A DNA stretch of 64,000 bases, from positions 352,001 to 416,000 of the forward strand of contig CAVQXP010000002.1 in the NCBI GenBank assembly GCA_963717935.1, read 5' to 3'. This DNA is from Candidatus Eiseniibacteriota bacterium. GTDB taxonomy: Bacteria > Eisenbacteria > RBG-16-71-46. Below are positions 31,681 to 63,707 of the stretch, piece by piece (within the stretch, counting starts at the first letter, position 1; each line of letters begins with the position of its first letter). A program made the position numbers and the translations under genes. The notes below the pieces were generated by a model that worked only from the letters and a program-made list of their open reading frames with translations, was not told the origin of the DNA and did not search any database.

Positions 31681-32575
31681 GCGCCCGCCGGTCGCGCCCG
31701 CCGGCCCGCCGGCCCGCGCTGCGTCGCGTCGCGAGCCCCGCGCGCGTGCATGCGCTGGTGGCCGGGCTGGAAGCGCGCCGGCCTGCGCGTGGCGTTCGTG
31801 CCCACCATGGGCGCGATCCACGAGGGGCACCTGAGCCTGGTGCGGCGCGCCCGCGCGGCGGCGGACCGCGTGGTGGCGAGCATCTTCGTCAACCCGCTGC
31901 AGTTCGGGCCGGGCGAGGACTTCGCGCGCTACCCGCGCCCCGTCCGCCGCGACCGCGACCTGCTGGCGGAGGCGGGCGTGGACCTGCTGTGGGAGCCGCG
32001 CGGCGCGGACCTCTACCCGCCCGGACACCGCACGCGCGTGAGGGTCGCGGGCCTGGGCGACGTGCTCGAGGGCGCCACGCGCCCCGGGCACTTCGACGGG
32101 CGTGACCACGGTGGTGCTCGTCCTGCTCGAGGTGGTGGCGCCGCACGTGCTGTGGCTCGGACAGAAGGACGCCCAGCAGGCGCTGCTGATCGAGCGCATG
32201 GTGCGCGACCTGCGCCTGCCGGTGAAGGTGCGGCGCGGCCCGACGGTGCGCGAGCCCGACGGGCTGGCGATGTCCTCGCGCAACGCCTACCTGTCGCCCG
32301 CGGAGCGCGCGCAGGCGGTGGCGCTGTCGCGCGGCCTGGCCGCGGCCCGCGCCGCGCTGGTGGCGGGCGAGCGCTCGGCGGCGCGCGTGGCGCGGGCGGT
32401 GCGCGCGGTGTGGCGCCGCCACCCGCTGGTGCGCGAGGACTACGTGGCGGTGGTGGACGCGCAGACGCTCGAGCCGGTGAAGGACGTGCGCGCGGCGCGC
32501 CGGCTGCTGGTCGCGGTGGCCGCGCGCGTAGGTCCCGCGCGGCTCATCGACAACTTCGAGTGGAGCCGGCGATGA
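31677..32575 (+). CDS. panC: Pantoate-beta-alanine ligase (frameshifted)
   Basis: [51 protein letters not shown]. Confidence 0.93.
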
Positions 32576-33216
32576 GCGCGCGGCGGGTGGCATCGGCGCG
32601 GCCACGACGCGGGACGGCAGAGCGGGCAACGGGCGGTGAGCCGAAACGCCTCCGGCCGGCCGCCCCGGCGGGCGCACGGGGCGCGCTCGAGCGGCTGTGG
32701 GCTCCGTGGCGGATGGCGTATGTCGGCCGGGCGCAGGAGCCGGCCGGTTGTCTGTTCTGCCGGGTGGCCCGCGCGCGCGCCGACCGGCCGCTCCTGGTCC
32801 TGGCGCGCCGGCCGCACGCCTTCCTGATGCTGAACCGCTACCCGTACAACGGCGGGCACCTGATGGTGGCGGTGCGCGAGCACCGGGCCTGCTTCGCGCG
32901 TCTCACGGCGGAGGAGCGCGCGGACCTGCTGGAGCTCGTGGGGCTTGCGGAACGGGCCCTGGAGACGGAGTATCACCCGCACGGCATGAACTTCGGCGTG
33001 AACGTCGGGCGCGTGGCCGGCGCCGGTTTCCCCGGGCATCTGCACATGCACGTGGTGCCGCGCTGGGACGGCGACACCAATTTCATGGCGGCGGTCGGCG
33101 AGACCCGCGTGCTCCCGGAGTCCCTGGCGCGGACCTGGATCCGTCTGCGCCGGGCCATCCGGATGCTCGAACGGGGGCCGGGCGGGCGACGGAGGGCGCG
33201 TGGCCCGAAGGGGTGA
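32572..33216 (+). CDS. HIT family hydrolase (Ap4A phosphorylase-like)
   Basis: LWAPWRMAY, CLFC, LNRYPYNGGHLM, HLHMHVVPRWDGDTNFM. Confidence 0.9.
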   Translation: MSARRVASARPRRGTAERATGGEPKRLRPAAPAGARGALERLWAPWRMAYVGRAQEPAGCLFCRVARARADRPLLVLARRPHAFLMLNRYPYNGGHLMVAVREHRACFARLTAEERADLLELVGLAERALETEYHPHGMNFGVNVGRVAGAGFPGHLHMHVVPRWDGDTNFMAAVGETRVLPESLARTWIRLRRAIRMLERGPGGRRRARGPKG

Positions 33217-35815: not shown

Positions 35816-36006
35816 TCAGGGCTCCCGGAACGGGCCGAAGCGATCGTGGAGGAGAGTGACCCGGCATTCTACCAGCCACCTCCGGCGCGCTCAACCAGCC
35901 GGTCCCGCCCCGGGCGGGTGCGGGAAACCGCGCATCCTCCGTTGCCTGCGTGGGCGGCGTGTGCTACCTCTCAGCCTGCATCGTTGATTCCGCCCGTGGA
36001 GGGCCG

Positions 36007-37122
36007 ATGAGCACGCGCAGCGAAGCCCCCGCCCGTCCGGCCGATTCGGAGCCCGCGCCGCGCCCGATCCCGTGGCCCACGCAGGTGCTGGACGCGCTGG
36101 AACAGGGGGTGGTGGCACTCGACCGTGAGCGCCGTGTCACCTACAACAACCGCCGCATCGAGGAGCTGTTCGCCATCGAGCCGGGCGGGCTGCTGGGGCT
36201 GCCGGCGTCGCGCCTGTTCCCCGGGGCCGACGCGCGCTGGCTGAAGGGCTCCTCGCGCGAGCCGCGCGAGTTCCGCATCGAAGCCGAGGGCCGCGAGTTG
36301 ACGCTCAAGGCCGAGTCCCTGCCGTTGCGCGACGAGGATGGCGCCCTGATGGGCTCGCTCGTGATGGTGGAGGCCACCTCCGAGAGCGAGGACGGCGAGT
36401 TCCAGAAGAACATCGACCGTCTGGTCTCGCTGGGCGAGTTGTCGGCCTACGTGGCCCACGAGATCCGCAACCCGCTGACAGGCATCCGCACCACCGTCCA
36501 GTACGTGGGCTCGAAGTTCAAGCCCAACGACGCCCGGCGCGAGGATCTCGAGGACGTCATCAAGGAGCTGGACCGCATCGAGCAGATCATCACCGGCCTG
36601 CTCATGTTCGCCCGGCCGCCCGCGGCCCGCCCGCAGTCGTGCGACCTGCGCCAGGTGCTCGAGAAGACGCTGGACCTGCTCGAGCTGCAGCTGGGGGACG
36701 CGCAGGTGACGCTCTCCAAGGATTACGCCGAGGTGACCGAGGAGATCCCGCTCGTCTACGCGGACCCCGACCTCACGCAGCAGGTGTTCCTCAACCTCTG
36801 CCTGAACGCCGTGCAGGCCATGCCCGAAGGGGGCGAGCTGCACGTCATGCTGGGGGTGCGGCGCTACCGCACGCGGCGCTCGGTGGTGGACGTCTCCTTC
36901 CGGGACACCGGCGTGGGCATCCCCAAGGATCTCATGGAGAAGATCTTCGACCCCTTCTTCACGACGCGTTCCATGGGCACCGGGCTGGGCCTGCCCATCT
37001 CGCTGCAGATCGTGCGCGAGGTGGGCGGCGTGATCACCGCCAAGAACAACGCGGGCGGTGGCGCGACGCTGCGCGTCTCCTTCCCGGTCCCGGCGGAGCC
37101 GCCGGGACCGCCGGAGGACTAG
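36007..37122 (+). CDS. Cytoplasmic PAS-domain sensor histidine kinase (NtrB/AtoS-like)
   Basis: PAS (GVVALD...YNN), H-box AHEIRNPL, N-box NLCLNAVQAM, G1 DTGVGI, F/G2 IFDPFFTT..GTGLGL. No TM helix. Confidence 0.92.
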   Translation: MSTRSEAPARPADSEPAPRPIPWPTQVLDALEQGVVALDRERRVTYNNRRIEELFAIEPGGLLGLPASRLFPGADARWLKGSSREPREFRIEAEGRELTLKAESLPLRDEDGALMGSLVMVEATSESEDGEFQKNIDRLVSLGELSAYVAHEIRNPLTGIRTTVQYVGSKFKPNDARREDLEDVIKELDRIEQIITGLLMFARPPAARPQSCDLRQVLEKTLDLLELQLGDAQVTLSKDYAEVTEEIPLVYADPDLTQQVFLNLCLNAVQAMPEGGELHVMLGVRRYRTRRSVVDVSFRDTGVGIPKDLMEKIFDPFFTTRSMGTGLGLPISLQIVREVGGVITAKNNAGGGATLRVSFPVPAEPPGPPED

Positions 37123-37126
37123 GACC

Positions 37127-38501
37127 GTGAAGAACACCGTGCTCGTCGTGGACGACGAGACTCCTCATCCGCAAGTCGCTGTCCCGCGTGCTGCGCGAGA
37201 AGGGCTACCTGGTCGAGGGGGCGAGCACCGGGGCGGAGGGTCTCGAGAAGGTCGAAAGCGTGCGGCCGCAGGTCATCATCCTCGACATGCGCCTGCCGGA
37301 CACCGACGGCCTCTCCGTGCTGCGGCGCGTACGCCAGTTGGATGCGCTGGTCCAGGTCATCGTCATCACCGCCTACGGCGACGTCCAGTCGGCGGTCGAG
37401 GCCATGAAGCTCGGAGCCTGCGATTTCCTCCGGAAGCCGTACGAGAAGGAGGACATCGAGATGGCGGTCGAGGCTGCGGCCCGCACGTTCCGCCAGGCCA
37501 ACGAACTCGACCTCTACCGCCGCAAGGAGAAGCGCCGGTACACGGGGGAGGAGATCATCGGCACCTCCGTCCCCATGCAGGAGGTGCGGGATCTCATCGA
37601 GAAGGTGGTGCGCAGCCAGGCGACCTCCGTGTTCATCACCGGGGAGAGCGGGACCGGCAAGGAACTGGTCGCGCGGGCGATCCACTACCGCAGCGATCGT
37701 GCCCAGGCGCCGCTCATGGAGGTCAACTGCTCCTCGTTCCAGGAGACCCTGCTCGAGAACGAGCTGTTCGGGCACGAGCGCGGCGCCTTCACGGACGCCG
37801 GGGACCTGAAGAAGGGCCTGGTCGAGCTTTGCGACGGCGGCACGCTCTTCCTGGACGAGGTGGCGGACATGTCGATGCCGACCCAGGCCAAGCTCCTGCG
37901 CTTCATCGACTACCGGAACTTCAAGCGGGTGGGCGGGGCCGAGGACATCAGCGTGGACATCCGCATCGTGGCCGCCTCGAACAAGGATCTCGAGAGCGAC
38001 ATCCGCACCGGGCGCTTCCGCAGCGACCTGTACTTCCGCCTCAAGGTCGTGAGCATCCACCTGCCTCCGCTCAACGAGCGCGGTGACGACATCCTGCTGC
38101 TGGCGCGGCACTTCCTGCGCGAGTTCTCCCGCCAGTTCCAGAAGGACTTCCGCGACATCACGCCCGACGCGGCGCGCCTGCTGCTGTCCTACCGCTGGCC
38201 GGGCAACGTTCGCGAGCTGCGCAACCTCATCGAGCGCGTCGTGCTCCTCGAGGATGGGCGGCAACTGGAACTCGATCACCTGCCGGCGGAGGTCGCGGGC
38301 CGGCGCCTGGCCTCCGACCACTCGATCGCGCTGCCCACGCTCGCGCAGATCGAAGCCGACCACATCGCCGAGGTGCTGCGGCTCACCGCGGGGAACAAGA
38401 GCCGCGCCGCGCGCGTCCTCGGCATCTCGCGGCAGGGTCTCATCGAGAAGCTGCGGCGCTCGCGCGTGCTCGACGAGGGTGGTGGTCGTCAAGTATCTTG
38501 A
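37127..38501 (+). CDS. Sigma54-dependent response regulator (REC-AAA+-Fis HTH); frameshift ~37160
   Basis: VLVVDDE, LDMRLPD, GESGTGKE, ELFGHERGAFTDA, LFLDEV, FRSDLYFRL, WPGNVRELRN, GNKSRAARVLGISR. Confidence 0.94.
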
Positions 38502-38547
38502 CACCCACAAGGAAGTGGACACCGTCCTGCAATCTATTGTATTGCAG
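38488..38547. promoter_or_regulatory. Putative upstream activator sequences (palindromes) for a sigma54 activator
   Basis: GTCAAG-TAT-CTTGAC (38488-38502), a degenerate copy 18 bp downstream (CACAAGGAAGTGGACAC, 38506-38522), and CTGCAAT-N7-ATTGCAG (38527-38547), in the most AT-rich stretch of the window. Confidence 0.55.
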
Positions 38548-38713
38548 TTGTTTGCGATTCACGTTCCGGCTAACTCACCATTAAATTGACGGTTAGAACG
38601 GTTCGAGCCAGTCGAAAACGGCAAGGTGCGAGCCTGGGTAGAACCCACGGCTATTTTTTATTGCCTTGTACTGCAATGTCTTACGCGATGAATGACGCTG
38701 CCTCCCTGCCGTG

Positions 38714-38729
38714 TGGAATGGAACCTGCT
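38714..38729 (+). promoter_or_regulatory. Putative sigma54 (-24/-12) promoter
   Basis: TGGAATGGAACCTGCT has GG and GC at the canonical spacing of TGGCACGNNNNTTGC. It is preceded by an A/T tract and IHF-like CTGCAAtgtcTTA (38671-38683). Confidence 0.6.
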
Positions 38730-38739
38730 TCCGAGTTCG

Positions 38740-39294
38740 GGCGAGGCCAAGTGGGGTTCTCGGGAACTCCGCCGGGCCGCCGGGGCCGCGCCCAAGGCGG
38801 CGGCCAACAGTGCCCCAGCGAGAAGTTGGGGACTCCACCATCGAGATCAGATCCAAGGAGGTGATCAGGAATGGCAGCGAAGAAGAAGGTCGCCAAGAAG
38901 AAGGTCGCCAAGAAGAAGGTCGCCAAGAAGAAGAAGTAAGCCCGTCTCAGGACCTGGCACGTCCTCAGGGGATTGGTCGGCGATGCCGGCCAATCCCCGA
39001 TTGCTGGGGGAGCGGCTCTCGACCCGGCGGGGAGGTCCAGGGGAGAGGATGCGCGCCGGCTGCCACGCCCGTTCGCGGGAGCGACCCTCGCTCCGCCTGG
39101 AGTGGAAGCCGATCGACCGGCGGGTCGGCCTTACCTGAGGCCACCGGTCGCGCGAGAGAGAACGCACCGCGGGACGGTGACCTGACGGTGCGGGTTTGGG
39201 GCTGGAGGTTTCCGTGCTAGGGCTGGCCGTCTTCCTCCAGTGACCCGCGACGGTTCGCTCATGGATGGGCGGGCCGTTCGCGTCTTCTGAGGAT
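38740..39294 (+). ncRNA. Candidate structured RNA (family not recognised) surrounding the small Lys-rich ORF
   Basis: At least nine predicted hairpins, several with G-U pairs on the + strand (38751-38772, 38813-38831, 38968-38998, 39250-39277), plus possible long-range pairings. Confidence 0.45.
38871..38939 (+). CDS. 22-aa Lys/Ala/Val-rich basic peptide MAAKKKVAKKKVAKKKVAKKKK (histone H1-tail/protamine-like)
   Basis: AAGGAGGTGA Shine-Dalgarno (38855-38864), ATG 38871, TAA 38937-38939. All 13 Lys codons are AAG. Built from the 15-bp unit AAGAAGAAGGTCGCC x3. Confidence 0.8.
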   Translation: MAAKKKVAKKKVAKKKVAKKKK

Positions 39295-39394
39295 CCCCCG
39301 CAGCGTTCCCTGCAGCGAGCCTTGCCGCCGGTGGCGCGTGCTATAGTCGTGCAGCTCGCCACCGCCGCGTGCTCTTCGCCTGCCCGAGGCCCCG

Positions 39395-42184
<2,790 letters not shown>

Positions 42185-42218
42185 ACGCCGCCCATCCCGG
42201 GCGCAGACTCCCGCCGCC

Positions 42219-43680
42219 ATGGACGCCATCTCCGCCGCCGGGCTCGAGCGGCTCGACGACTTCCGCTGGATGATCCCGCGCGCGGGCGCGATGCGCGTGC
42301 CCGGGGTCATCTTCGCGGACCGGCCGCTGCTCGAGCAGATCCTCGGCCGACCGCACCTGCGAGCAGATCCGCAATGCCGCGACCCTGCCGGGCATCCTCG
42401 AGGCCTCGATCGCCATGCCCGACGCCCACTGGGGCTACGGGCTGCCGGTCGGCGGCGTGGTGGCCTTCGATCCCGGACGAGGGCGTGGTCTCGCCGGGCG
42501 CGGTGGGCTACGACATCGGCTGCGGCGTGCGCCTGATGCGCACCCGCCTCGACGCGCGCCGACCTGGCCCCGCAGGTGGAGGCCCTGGCCGACGCGCTCT
42601 ACCGCGAGGTGCCCGTGCGGCGTGGGCTCCACCGGGCGCGGTGCGGCTCAAGCCCGGGCGATCTGGACCGGGTGCTGCGCGACGGGCCGCGCTGGGCGGT
42701 CGGGCGCGGCCTGGGCACCGCGGGCGACCTCGAGCACTGCGAGGAGGCCGGCGTGCTGGCCGACGCCGACCCGGGCGCGGTGAGCGAGGCCGCGAAGGAC
42801 CGCGGCCGCGACCAGCTCGGCACGCTGGGCTCGGGCAACCACTTCCTCGAGGTGCAGGAGGTGGACGAGATCCACGACGAGGACGGCGGCGCGGGCGCTC
42901 GGGCTCGAGCGGGGCATGGTCACCGTGATGATCCACTGCGGCTCGCGCGGGCTGGGCCACCAGGTCTGCACCGACCACGTGCGCGACGTCGCGCGCAAGC
43001 TCACCGGCTGGGGCATCGACGCTGCCGGACCGGCAGCTCGCCTGCGCCCCGCTGCGCTCGCCCGAGGCCACGGCCTACCTGGGCGCGATGCGCGCGGCCG
43101 CGAACTTCGCCTGGGCGAACCGGCAGTGCATCGCCGACGAGGTGCGGCGCGCCTTCGAGCGCACGCTGCGCCGCAGCCACGAGTCGCTTGGACCTCACGC
43201 TGGTCTACGACGTGGCGCACAACATCGCCAAGTTCGAGCGCCACCGGACCGCGGCGGGCACGGTGCGCTGCCTGGTGCACCGCAAGGGCGCGACGCGGGC
43301 CTTCCCGGCGGGCCACCCCGACGTGCCCGCGGCCTACCGTGCGGTGGGCCAGCCGGTGCTGGTGCCCGGGCGACATGGGGCGCTACTCGTTCGTGCTGGT
43401 CGGGCGTCCGGGCTCGATGGCGCACGCCTTCGGCTCCACCTGCCACGGCGCCGGACGCCGCATGAGCCGCACCCAGGCGGTGCGCGAGACGCGCGGCCGC
43501 GACCTGGTCGCCGAGCTGCGCGAGGCCGGCGTCGCCGTGCGCTCCAAGGGCCGCGACACGCTGCGCGAGGAGACCAGCGAGGCCTACAAGGACGTGGCCG
43601 ACGTCGTGCGCGTGGTCGAGGGCGCGGACCTGGCGAGGCGCGTGGCGCGGCTCAGGCCGTTCCTGGTGGTCAAGGGCTGA
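42219..43680 (+). CDS. rtcB: RNA 2',3'-cyclic phosphate/5'-OH ligase RtcB (multiple frameshifts)
   Basis: [65 protein letters not shown]-terminal VKG. Confidence 0.92.
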
Positions 43681-43754
43681 CTGCTACGCGAAGCCCCGCC
43701 CCGGTGCTCCGGGACGGGGCCTCGTTCGACTCGGGGCGCCCTGCGAACCCAGCC

Positions 43755-44591
43755 TCAGGCCTTCGTGATCGTCCGTGGCGGCGCCGCCGGGATGTCCTCG
43801 CGCCGCTTGCCGCAGGGCTTGTCCGCCAGCCTGGAGGCCGGCTTGCGCACGCGCAGCCGCAGCAGGTCGAAGCACGAGGTCCTGCTTCATCAGCTGGATC
43901 GCCTTGGCCGGGTCCACCCCCTTGGGGCAGACCTGCGAGCACTCGCCCGCGAAGTGGCAGCGCCACGGTCCGCTGCCCACGGAGAGCAGCTCGCGCCGCC
44001 GCGCGAACCCGCCGTCGCGCGTGTCGCTGTTGTAGCGGTGGGCCTGTGCCAGCGGCATCGGCCCGGAGTACTTCGGGTCCGTTGCCACCGTCGGGCATGC
44101 CGCCATGCAGCAGCCGCACTTGATGCAGTAGCTGAACTGCAGGTAGCGCTCCAACTCGTGCGGCGTCTGCCAGTACTCCCCGGTCGGGTCGTTCTGCTCC
44201 TTGACGTCCTCGCGGATCAGGTAGGGCATCAGCTCGCGGTGGGCCTCGAACATCAGGTGCAGGTCGGGCACGAGGTCCTTGATGATGCCGAAGTTGGGCA
44301 GCGGCCCCACCGCGACGACGTCGCTCTGCAGTTCGGAGATCTGCGTGTTGCAGGCCAGTCGCGGGCGGCCGTTGATGAGCATGCCGCACGAGCCGCAGAT
44401 GCCCATGCGACACGAGGAGCGCCACGCCAGGGTCGGCGCGAACAACTCCTTCACCTTCCACAGGCCGTCGAGCACGGTCATGCCGGGCAGTGACGTCGAT
44501 CTTGTACGTGCTCCCAGTGCGGCTCGCGGTCCTTGCCGGGCTCGTAGCGGCGGAGGTGGAAGACCACCTGCTTCAGGCTCGTGTCGGCCAT
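43755..44591 (-). CDS. sdhB: Succinate dehydrogenase/fumarate reductase iron-sulfur subunit (frameshifts near both ends)
   Basis: SCRMGICGSCG, LAC, CIKCGCCMAACP, CHFAGECSQVCP. Confidence 0.9.
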
Positions 44592-62273: not shown

Positions 62274-63707
62274 ATGGAAATGAAACCTTCGCTGAACCTG
62301 AGCCTGCGGCCGGCCCTCATCATGACGCCGCGCCTGCAGCAGGCGCTCAAGCTGCTGCAGGTGCCGACGCTCGAGCTTCAGCAGATCCTCAAGCAGGAGA
62401 TGATCCAGAACCCGCTGCTCGAGGAGGTGGACGAGGTCACGGAGAGCGAGGACCTCGCCAAGGAGGACTCTCCCGAGGAGAAGGCCAACGAAGAGGCGGA
62501 GGACCCGACCGAGGAAGATCCCATCGACTGGTCGGATTACATGCAGGACGGGGCGCTCGACCGGGTCTACGTGCCCCAGCAGGAGACCTCGGTGGAGTTC
62601 CTCGAGAAGGTGCCGGTCACGCGCACCTCGCTGGCCGAGAGCCTGCTCGAGCAGCTCCACTTCCTGGCGCTCTCGCCGCGCGACCTGATGCTCGCGGAGT
62701 TCCTGGTCGGCTCGCTGGACGAGCGCGGCTGGCTGGCGACCCCGCTCGATGAGGTGGCGCAGTCCACGGGCCAGCCGCTCGAGCTCTGCGAGCGGATCCT
62801 GAAGGTCATCCAGGCGCTCGAGCCGGTCGGGGTGGGAGCGCGCGACCTGCGGGAGTGCCTGCTCATCCAGCTCGAGGCGCGCAACGAGCGCGATACGCTG
62901 CCGTGGAAGCTCATCCACGACCAGTTCGACAACCTGGTGAACCGGCGCTTCCCCGAGATCGCGCGCCAGCTCAAGTGCACGTCCGAGGAGGTGCAGGCGG
63001 GGGCCGACGCCATCGCCACGCTGAACCCCAAGCCGGGGCTCCAGGTCTCGAGCGAGGATCCCAGGTACGTGGTGCCCGACCTGGTCGTCGAGCGCGTGAA
63101 CGACGAGTACCTCGTCATGCTCAACGACCGGCACCTGCCCCGGTTGCGCATCTCCGCGGCCTACGAAGGCGTGATGCGCGGCAAGAAGAAGTCGGAGTGC
63201 ACCGTCGGCGAGGTCAAGACCCGCGAGTACATCCAGGGCAAGCTGAACTCGGCGCGCTGGCTCATCCAGACCATCGAGCAGCGGCGCCGCACCATGATCA
63301 AGGTGATGAACTGCATCATCCGCGAGCAGCGGGAGTTCTTCGACAAGGGGATCGCGTTCCTGCGGCCGCTCACGCTCCAGCAGGTCGCCCGGCAGATCGA
63401 CATGCACGAGTCCACGGTGAGCCGCGTCTGCAGCGCGAAGTACGTGCAGACGCCGCGCGGCGTGTTCGAGCTCAAGTTCTTCTTCTCGAGCGGGCTCGAG
63501 ACCGAGGACGGCGAGGACGTGTCGGCCCGGACGGCCCGTGACATCATCAAGACCCTCATCGACGAGGAGGTCAAGACCGAGCCGCTGTCCGACCAGCGCA
63601 TCGCCGAGCTCCTGCACGAGACGGGGCTCAAGATCGCCCGGCGGACGGTGGCCAAGTACCGGGAACAGCTCAGCATCCTGCCGGCGCGGTTCCGCCGGCG
63701 CGTGTGA
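62274..63707 (+). CDS. rpoN: RNA polymerase sigma-54 factor
   Basis: MTPRLQQALKLLQ, NPLLE, GARDLRECL, HESTVSR, ELKFFF, PLSDQ, RpoN box ARRTVAKYR. Confidence 0.97.
   Translation: MEMKPSLNLSLRPALIMTPRLQQALKLLQVPTLELQQILKQEMIQNPLLEEVDEVTESEDLAKEDSPEEKANEEAEDPTEEDPIDWSDYMQDGALDRVYVPQQETSVEFLEKVPVTRTSLAESLLEQLHFLALSPRDLMLAEFLVGSLDERGWLATPLDEVAQSTGQPLELCERILKVIQALEPVGVGARDLRECLLIQLEARNERDTLPWKLIHDQFDNLVNRRFPEIARQLKCTSEEVQAGADAIATLNPKPGLQVSSEDPRYVVPDLVVERVNDEYLVMLNDRHLPRLRISAAYEGVMRGKKKSECTVGEVKTREYIQGKLNSARWLIQTIEQRRRTMIKVMNCIIREQREFFDKGIAFLRPLTLQQVARQIDMHESTVSRVCSAKYVQTPRGVFELKFFFSSGLETEDGEDVSARTARDIIKTLIDEEVKTEPLSDQRIAELLHETGLKIARRTVAKYREQLSILPARFRRRV

Follow-up and report, generated by a model that had tools for sequence, protein, structure and literature searches.

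The window analysed here is a stretch of 64,000 nucleotides (nt) from contig CAVQXP010000002.1 of a Candidatus Eiseniibacteriota bacterium (assembly GCA_963717935.1). On its forward strand, downstream of a two-component gene pair and upstream of uvrA, it carries a micro-gene of 22 codons that encodes the lysine-repeat peptide MAAKKKVAKKKVAKKKVAKKKK. Comparison with related loci indicates that this open reading frame (ORF) is a conserved gene and not a chance frame, and that it is the output of a sigma-54 promoter located beside a histidine kinase and an NtrC-family activator. The ORF is a genuine micro-gene that is transcribed and, very probably, also translated. Its product would be an inducible polycation that binds nucleic acid, the presumed target, or another polyanion, a reading to which a probability of about 0.5 can be assigned. 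The kind of gene involved can be described as an H1-tail-like lysine-repeat protein that is miniaturised and placed under a dedicated sigma-54 switch.

The ORF extends from an ATG at 38871-38873 to a TAA at 38937-38939. It is preceded by AAGGAGGTGA (38855-38864), the core of the longer Shine-Dalgarno (SD) sequence AAGGAGGTGATC, with 6 nt between AAGGAGGTGA and the ATG. Within the ORF, Tandem Repeats Finder delimits a tandem repeat at 38880-38933 (unit AAGAAGAAGGTCGCC, period 15 nt, 3.6 copies, 100% matches), and the peptide reads as three KKKVA units followed by KKKK. The product of 22 amino acids (aa) has a mass of 2468 Da, 13 lysines (about 60%), no acidic residue and a net charge of about +12.5. 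A preliminary description of this DNA, made from its letters, had reported the SD, the 6-nt gap to the ATG, exact repeat copies, the TAA stop and a product with 13 lysines in 22 residues and no acidic one, and all of these are present in the sequence. It had also held the peptide to be unannotated: an exact look-up of nine peptide variants in a collection of 15 billion proteins retrieved none of them. This result suggests that a phylum-wide regulated gene has been overlooked, as gene callers skip such short genes.

A BLAST search with the 901-nt intergenic stretch gave a match in 39 of 41 related genomes, the widely shared block running from the SD to just beyond the hairpin located 3' of the ORF. 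Extra BLAST matches in relatives were considered as further copies of the micro-gene and rejected, as they correspond to Lys/Ala tails of larger ORFs. Loci were collected with the search pattern 'AAGAAGTAR, 2-25 nt, GGACCTGGCACGTCC', the reversed pattern serving as control. The pattern is present exactly once per genome in 91 of the 206 genomes of the phylum (82/88 in family f1, 8/10 in family f3 and none in all other families), and the reversed control gave no match. A search of one genome per species (185,579 species) found 86 stretches; among the 80 titles listed for them, 52 read Candidatus Eisenbacteria or Eiseniibacteriota, 25 only 'uncultured bacterium' or 'bacterium', and three carry other labels. 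After removal of duplicates, the set comprises 89 unique loci, to which one additional locus truncated by a contig end can be added. Statements on family f3 rest on loci L021-L027 and on L028, which comes from an unpublished genome (G026).

All 89 unique loci retain GG[AG]GGTGA, an ATG, an in-frame TAA or TAG and a Lys/Ala frame of 17-28 codons, the ATG being found 6-7 nt behind the SD in 77 of them (automatic start choice). The frame has 22 codons in 51 loci and 21 codons in 22 loci. Forms of 17, 22 and 27 aa exist, and the length differences correspond to entire codons or to the entire 15-nt unit. The 17-aa form, which lacks one such unit, occurs in two unique loci and is found in a genus-mate, so that the variation in repeat copy number anticipated by the preliminary description does occur. 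For the 26 unique 22-codon sequences, the non-Lys codons have a summed entropy of 1.69 bits at codon position 1, 5.22 bits at position 2 and 8.46 bits at position 3, and the third base of the Ala codons is free to vary. The spacer residues between the lysines remain small (A, G, V, T, S or P). The rhythm of the peptide is KKKXX in family f1 and KKXX in family f3, which suggests that the conserved property is charge and not register. In the 43 loci whose flanks are long, the median length at which the peptide frame closes is 24 codons, the other frames being open to varying extents, and the indels found in the 5' untranslated region (UTR) and in the spacer behind the stop are not multiples of three. 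The long overlapping ORFs present on both strands were rejected as genes, since they have no Pfam match and their bounds are inconsistent among loci.

The 3' end of the 16S rRNA of this genome was found to be ...GGAUCACCUCCUUUCU, so that the SD can pair perfectly with the 16S tail over 12 nt. Apart from the SD, the 3.0-Mb genome contains this 12-mer only where it is the complement of the 16S gene, which makes two occurrences in all. There are 38 occurrences of the 9-mer GGAGGTGAT, with a start codon 2-9 nt behind it in 11 cases; judged by their translations, few of these 11 resemble real genes, and they include the micro-gene ORF and one read as ribosomal protein L24. On these counts, the SD of the micro-gene is the strongest in the genome.

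The promoter located upstream of the micro-gene shows -24 GG and -12 GC elements with GG-N10-GC spacing at a conserved place, as expected of a sigma-54 unit. In other genera, its consensus is TGGCAC/T-N5-(T/G)TGC. The motif TGG-N9-TGC was found by regular expression 104-168 nt 5' of the ATG in 77 of the 89 unique loci. The 12 others are eight loci of family f3, one locus truncated by a contig end and three loci that carry variants recognised by eye. In families f2 and f3, the promoter stands 5' of a gene encoding a single REC domain, which itself precedes the peptide gene. A scan for sigma-70 promoters found no site. The activator gene adjoins the micro-gene in all 20 loci compared by tblastn, and uvrA is the next gene downstream in 16 of these 20. 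The rpoN gene is located in the same window (63225-63701, Sigma54_DBD, 210.8 bits), about 24 kb downstream. The best NCBIfam match of the kinase is AtoS-like, under every equivalog cut-off. A frame break of the window assembly near 37160, read from the sequence, makes the listed ORF of the activator start only at 37188. Throughout the genome, 22 Sigma54_activat matches were found, some of which are fragments of one gene.

Transcription of the micro-gene would depend on this activator. The inverted repeat GTCAAGTATCTTGAC is a candidate upstream activator site, the corresponding regular expression GTC[AC]A-N5-TTGAC having a match in 38 of the 50 loci L001-L050. The element GCTAAC..CCATTAAATTGACGGTTAGAAC is possibly a second activator site or a site for a bending protein. 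The GC content falls to 0.485 over 38500-38699. A palindrome, CTGCAATCTATTGTATTGCAG (38527-38547), is also present in this 48%-GC spacer, and motifs of the GCAA...TTGC type, which recur at the same place in relatives, could be additional regulator sites. In several other genera, family f1 loci (including L009, L032, L088 and L103) carry two to four DnaA-box-like repeats in the same orientation (TTATCCACA-like: TTCTCCACA, CCATCCACA and TTATTCACA) in the interval that separates the conserved TTGACA element from the sigma-54 promoter; these repeats are absent from the window.

The same organisation was found in the five other families of the phylum that were sampled (f7, f9, f10, f15 and f18). 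The best match to the activator in these families shares 56-59% identity with it, the next best 45-50%. Next on the 3' side of the best-match activator comes a REC gene, behind which stands a Lys-repeat ORF (91, 101, 69, 104 and 16 aa, respectively). A Lys-rich ORF is present at 5/5 best-match loci of these families versus 0/5 loci of their second-best activators, so that the association is specific, and three of the five families show a promoter-like site with a score of 9 or more out of 12. This layout of activator, REC gene and Lys-repeat ORF indicates that the module is phylum-wide. The repeat proteins of 69-104 aa encoded at the orthologous site in f7, f9, f10 and f15 are built of the same Lys-rich units. 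The micro-gene would thus be the smallest member of a phylum-wide Eisenbacteria lysine-repeat family (16 to about 104 aa). This family appears always to be the output of a module made of a histidine kinase, an NtrC-family activator, a sigma-54 promoter, in some cases a single REC gene, and the Lys-repeat ORF. The window would show the minimal form of this module, the REC gene having been lost in family f1. The preliminary description had proposed a stand-alone protamine-like peptide. Its polycation part is strengthened, as the gene is conserved and transcribed, shows coding-type substitution and has long relatives with a weak likeness to Hc2, whereas 'stand-alone' has to be given up in view of the sigma-54 module.

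The long relatives match the Pfam family HC2 (PF07382) with an E value of 3.3e-6 and 27.8 bits, under the 40-bit cut-off, and the NCBIfam H1-like models NF038052 and NF038053 with 19.1 bits (versus 80) and 16.6 bits (versus 135), both below cut-off. A homologue search with the 101-aa relative retrieved at least 39 proteins at E <=1e-3, of which 33 carry a SWIB domain (PF02201), and did not recover the query's own family; the likeness of these 39 proteins to the query is compositional. Among the matches listed for this relative, fusions of Lys-repeat regions with SWIB/MDM2 domains (PF02201) are frequent, and two proteins are labelled Zixibacteria.

The RNA evidence consists of contigs from four runs labelled RNA, which inform on presence and give hints of ends, not levels. 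In X7 and X11, two soil-labelled runs of one study, contigs cover 38744-38909 with 2-5 differences per 56-136 nt, so that they derive from a close relative; the depth of single contigs reaches 1056. The contigs start at 38744 (X7) and 38743 (X11) and are preceded by loose letters (...GATCT+GGC and ...CACGACGCTCTTCCGATCT+GGG), which we take to be a sequencing adapter plus the initial bases of the RNA. These contigs of a single study hint at an RNA 5' end at about 38740. In X18, a wetland-labelled run, an 87-nt contig with no difference and a depth of 83.8 covers 38911-38997 and stops at the end of the 3' hairpin. The contigs break within the 15-nt repeat, as expected. The four runs show no cover upstream of 38743 and almost none beyond 39007, and X18 shows none of the 5' UTR; these absences were not used as evidence.

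The RNA of 263 nt (38741-39003) is predicted to fold with -119.6 kcal/mol (z -4.24). Its 5' hairpin shows compensatory changes in 7 of 13 predicted pairs (RNAalifold, 29 sequences). In the RNAalifold consensus of 39 sequences, 5 of 25 predicted pairs show compensatory changes, all of them within the 3' hairpin. This terminator-type hairpin was overlooked by the terminator scan because it has no T run. A scan of 37500-40000 against Rfam 15 (E up to 1) gave only three matches, of 19-23 bits versus gathering thresholds of 40-45.

Between the stop codon and the terminator lies the 15-nt element GGACCTGGCACGTCC, which is invariant in families f1 and f3 and whose core GGC(A/G)CGTCC is kept in f2 and f18; the four long forms that were sampled do not carry it. 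It contains CACGUCCU (CACGUCC(U)), which differs by one base from the 16S anti-SD CACCUCCU (CACCUCC(U)). In 14 of 77 transcripts, CACGUCCU is also found 13-14 nt 5' of the SD, the two forming a hairpin that includes a G.G mismatch and whose energy ranges from -8.8 to -13.2 kcal/mol. The RNAalifold consensus of the 39 sequences pairs the SD with the 3' element, whereas the single-sequence ensembles of the 77 transcripts give this pairing a mean probability of 0.10 and a median of 0. As both partners are invariant, covariation cannot decide on this pairing. The 3' element is probably, as we infer, an SD-masking device specific to the short forms, and the combination of a perfect SD with an anti-SD look-alike may be a new layout of translational control. 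Two other roles of this region were considered and rejected: the 15-mer is not a repeated genomic element (one exact copy in the genome), and its TGGCACG is not a second sigma-54 promoter (no GC at the -12 spacing in any family).

Features of the micro-gene locus in the window (positions counted from the first nucleotide of the stretch)
Feature	Position	Strand	Basis or remark
Cytoplasmic PAS-HisKA-HATPase sensor histidine kinase, first gene of the pair	35950..37122	+	Pfam PAS_4, HisKA, HATPase_c
NtrC-family sigma-54 enhancer-binding response regulator (REC, AAA+, Fis-type helix-turn-helix)	37127..38501	+	Pfam Response_reg, Sigma54_activat (2.6e-64), HTH_8
Candidate upstream activator site, inverted repeat GTCAAGTATCTTGAC	38488..38502	.	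Overlaps the activator stop codon; conserved in upstream alignments
Second conserved A+T-rich element GCTAAC..CCATTAAATTGACGGTTAGAAC	38568..38599	.	Conserved across family f1 loci, by eye
Sigma-54 promoter TGGAATGGAACCTGCT	38714..38729	+	GG at 38715-16, GC at 38727-28
Predicted +1 (RNA 5' end from contigs)	38740	+	12 nt downstream of the C in the -12 GC
5'-terminal structure, GGCC/GGCC helix around a 9-bp hairpin, conserved loop (C)UCGG(G)	38745..38778	+	RNAfold of 38741-39003
Shine-Dalgarno sequence AAGGAGGTGATC	38855-38866	+	Perfect 12-nt complement of the 16S 3' tail GAUCACCUCCUU
ORF of 22 codons + TAA, product MAAKKKVAKKKVAKKKVAKKKK	38871..38939	+	Sequence; conserved as 17-28 codons in 89 unique loci
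Invariant 3' element GGACCTGGCACGTCC	38950..38964	+	Between stop and terminator; identical in all loci found through the search pattern
Terminator-type hairpin GGGGAUUGGUCGGC-GAUG-CCGGCCAAUCCCC, weak U tract	38968..38998	+	RNAalifold; end of the X18 contig

The functioning of the locus as an inducible polycation gene can be pictured in this way. The PAS kinase would sense the inducing signal and phosphorylate the activator, which would open the sigma-54 promoter from sites within the A+T-rich spacer. The transcript, about 260 nt long and structured, would have its ORF strongly translated by virtue of the perfect 12-nt SD. The resulting +12/+13 peptide of Lys-Lys-Lys-X-X pentamers would act by charge density and not by a fold. 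It would coat or condense a polyanion, most likely nucleic acid (nucleoid DNA or rRNA), by analogy with the Lys-pentamer protein Hc2.

Several results weigh against this picture. The peptide has no match among Pfam, NCBIfam and PDB sequences, even at an E value of 10 for the Hc2 and H1-like models, and the resemblance of its long relatives to Hc2 is compositional and below every curated threshold. Neither the kinase nor the activator reaches an equivalog cut-off of NCBIfam. Two other observations could reflect a function at the RNA level. Conservation of the 3' 15-mer exceeds that of the coding sequence. The lysine codons of the 89 loci are 1155 AAG and no AAA, the AAA share of Lys codons being 3.6% in the genome and 3.8% in a ribosomal-protein gene cluster; as the loci are related, this count does not amount to a statistical test, and exclusive use of AAG fits the avoidance of A runs in a translated polylysine gene and, equally, a constraint on the RNA. 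Lastly, the summed depth of the 5' UTR in X7 and X11 is far above that of the 3' part, which may mean that what persists is a stable piece of 5' RNA and not an mRNA, unless it results from assembly breaks in the repeat or from library bias.

A first alternative is that the transcript itself is the main effector, i.e., a sigma-54-dependent regulatory or dual-function RNA encoded directly after its activator gene, like NrsZ after ntrC, in which translation would be secondary or would only tune the RNA. The covarying 5' and 3' hairpins, the stable fold (z -4.24), the invariance of the 15-mer, the lack of any AAG to AAA change and the peak of summed depth on the 5' UTR in X7 and X11 are all in line with it. 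However, the variation of the ORF has a three-base periodicity and its length changes stay in frame. Moreover, the RNA elements differ across families and four long forms lack the 3' element, yet the Lys-repeat ORF persists, and it is difficult to see why a perfect 12-nt SD should stand optimally spaced before an ATG that never varies if no translation took place. As no Rfam family is matched either, an RNA effector seems unlikely, though it deserves serious consideration. The ribosome could also be the target, either of the peptide, which would bind rRNA as a hibernation-type or accessory factor or in the tunnel, or of the RNA, whose SD would titrate 30S subunits with CACGUCCU as an anti-SD mask. 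The exit tunnel of the ribosome holds about 30 residues or more, and the 22-aa peptide is shorter than this. The SD complementary to the 16S tail over 12 nt and unique in the genome, the invariant CACGUCCU 3' of the ORF, its hairpin-forming copy 5' of the SD in 14/77 transcripts and the consensus pairing of the SD with the 3' element would suit such a role. Against it stand the very low probability of this pairing in the individual transcripts (mean 0.10, median 0) and the invariance of both partners, which makes it untestable by covariation. In addition, the peptide resembles none of the ribosomal micro-proteins modelled in NCBIfam, and family members of 69-104 aa are unsuited to plugging a tunnel. 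A ribosome-directed role is thus improbable.

For an exported or surface-acting cationic peptide, whether antimicrobial or binding lipopolysaccharide or an exopolymer, only the composition speaks. The 22 residues include no signal peptide or hydrophobic stretch, the conserved neighbourhood (kinase, activator, REC and uvrA) shows no transporter, protease or modification gene, and a five-residue period would not give an amphipathic helix, so that this role is very improbable. The preliminary description had also considered a leader peptide that senses lysine or Lys-tRNA and controls read-through into the downstream RNA element and uvrA. Thirteen Lys codons out of 22, hairpins that begin 11 nt past the stop and one RNA-run contig of a relative that spans from the 3' hairpin region into the downstream element at low depth (3.66) are compatible with such a leader. 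Nevertheless, the covarying terminator lies within about 30 nt of the stop, and no antiterminator pairing of the ORF with a terminator arm was seen in consensus or single folds. What follows is a small RNA (sRNA)-like element and uvrA, with no relation to a lysine pathway, at a spacing to the next element that varies widely; the ORF reaches 69-104 codons in other families, and sigma-54 control is already an on/off switch. The leader idea therefore does not stand up well and has scarcely any likelihood left. Finally, the chance that the ORF is no gene, i.e., a chance frame within simple-repeat DNA or one piece of a longer, frameshifted gene owing to assembly errors, is negligible. The window assembly does have frame breaks in neighbouring genes, and other frames over the site are often open, as is usual at 70% GC. 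However, the start, stop and SD, whose conservation the preliminary description had left in question, are kept in all 89 unique loci from independent assemblies. The peptide frame closes at a median of 24 codons, the overlapping ORFs have no Pfam match, the indels of the 5' UTR and of the post-stop spacer are not multiples of three, and contigs of the RNA runs match the locus. The broken-gene fragment raised in the same description is ruled out by these many independent assemblies.

A more elaborate, self-contained scheme can be imagined, in which a sigma-54 burst would yield an RNA whose perfect 12-nt SD captures ribosomes, CACGUCCU, with its G.G mismatch, would mask or time this capture, and the polylysine would shut down or compact the nucleic acids of the cell, in the ribosome or the nucleoid, for dormancy in soil. 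Such a 'polycation switch' is speculative and rather doubtful. Literature searches aimed at lysine-rich small proteins, sigma-54/RpoN and Eisenbacteria found no such micro-gene within the library searched and, as far as they show, no link had been made before between lysine repeats of the histone-H1-tail kind and a dedicated two-component switch acting through sigma-54. The natural size series of 16-104 aa could show what amount of polylysine is needed to alter the state of the nucleoid or the ribosome. The very high contig depth in the soil-labelled RNA runs is a hint that the switch operates in situ in this phylum of uncultured soil bacteria.

Downstream of the micro-gene terminator and before uvrA, a second conserved and structured sRNA-like element is present (39200-39285, forward strand). 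It consists of a CUGGAGG/CCUCCAG stem with an inner hairpin, followed by a terminator-type hairpin, and its distance from the micro-gene varies. Compensatory changes affect 8 of its 28 predicted pairs (14 sequences), and it has no Rfam match. In one genus of family f3 (L023:1762-2262), the gene found after the micro-gene is not uvrA but encodes an S-adenosylmethionine (AdoMet) decarboxylase, an enzyme of polyamine synthesis. This arrangement, which brings another polycation pathway beside the polylysine gene, may be a coincidence. Apparent frame breaks of the assembly occur at 37127-37190, 39395-42273, 31750-33216 and 42576-44123. The frame shifts near 37160 in the activator N-terminus, overlapping ORFs share the uvrA sequence between them, a fragment of pantoate ligase continues into a HIT domain and RtcB is matched only partly. 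These breaks look like residual indel errors rather than biology.

Several known systems can be compared with the micro-gene and its transcript. RNA thermometers of the ROSE type are SD-masking RNA elements, and an anti-SD look-alike that pairs the SD with a G.G mismatch is likewise found in 14/77 Eisenbacteria transcripts. In contrast to these thermometers, most Eisenbacteria loci carry the sole copy about 85 nt downstream of the SD, past the ORF, and the predicted pairing is weak. The very small basic ribosomal proteins bS22, bL37 and bTHX share with the micro-gene product its size range and extreme basicity, the micro-gene being, in addition, too short for standard gene callers. Unlike them, this product is a simple Lys-pentamer repeat and not a mixture of Arg, Lys and His, and it is placed under a tightly regulated sigma-54 promoter; comparison with the NCBIfam and Pfam models of ribosomal micro-proteins gave no family. 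Elsewhere in the genome, outside the window (G000:C4:2078784-2078879), a 31-codon ORF encodes MGSGKKRKRKKIATHKRKKRLRKNRHKKRIR, which has no NCBIfam match at E up to 1 and presumably resembles a bS22 ribosomal protein like that of the Bacteroidota.

GlmY (with GlrKR) and Qrr (with LuxO) exemplify small sigma-54 transcripts whose genes neighbour that of their activator. These RNAs and NrsZ are described as non-coding, whereas the micro-gene RNA holds a conserved ORF that is equipped with an SD and shows coding-type substitution, and it has no sequence or Rfam similarity to them. NrsZ, according to PMC4253122, is a short sigma-54 transcript encoded directly downstream of ntrBC in Pseudomonas. The micro-gene transcript is likewise a short sigma-54 transcript located just 3' of an NtrC-family two-component pair, and it is structured and ends in a terminator-type hairpin.

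A parallel in kind is offered by the chlamydial histone H1-like protein Hc2 (HctB) and other bacterial Lys/Ala repeat proteins that resemble the H1 tail, although Hc2 has 165-237 aa whereas the Eisenbacteria product has 16-28 aa in four families, is controlled by sigma-54 together with a two-component activator and is only a putative DNA-binding peptide. Hc2, according to PMC2848022, binds DNA and varies in size with its number of lysine-rich pentamers, which differs among strains; tandem lysine-rich pentamers in variable copy number are present in the micro-gene family too. Furthermore, in both cases expression is tied to an alternative sigma factor: the Hc2 gene hctB is driven by sigma-28, as stated in PMC12282069, and the micro-gene would be driven by sigma-54.

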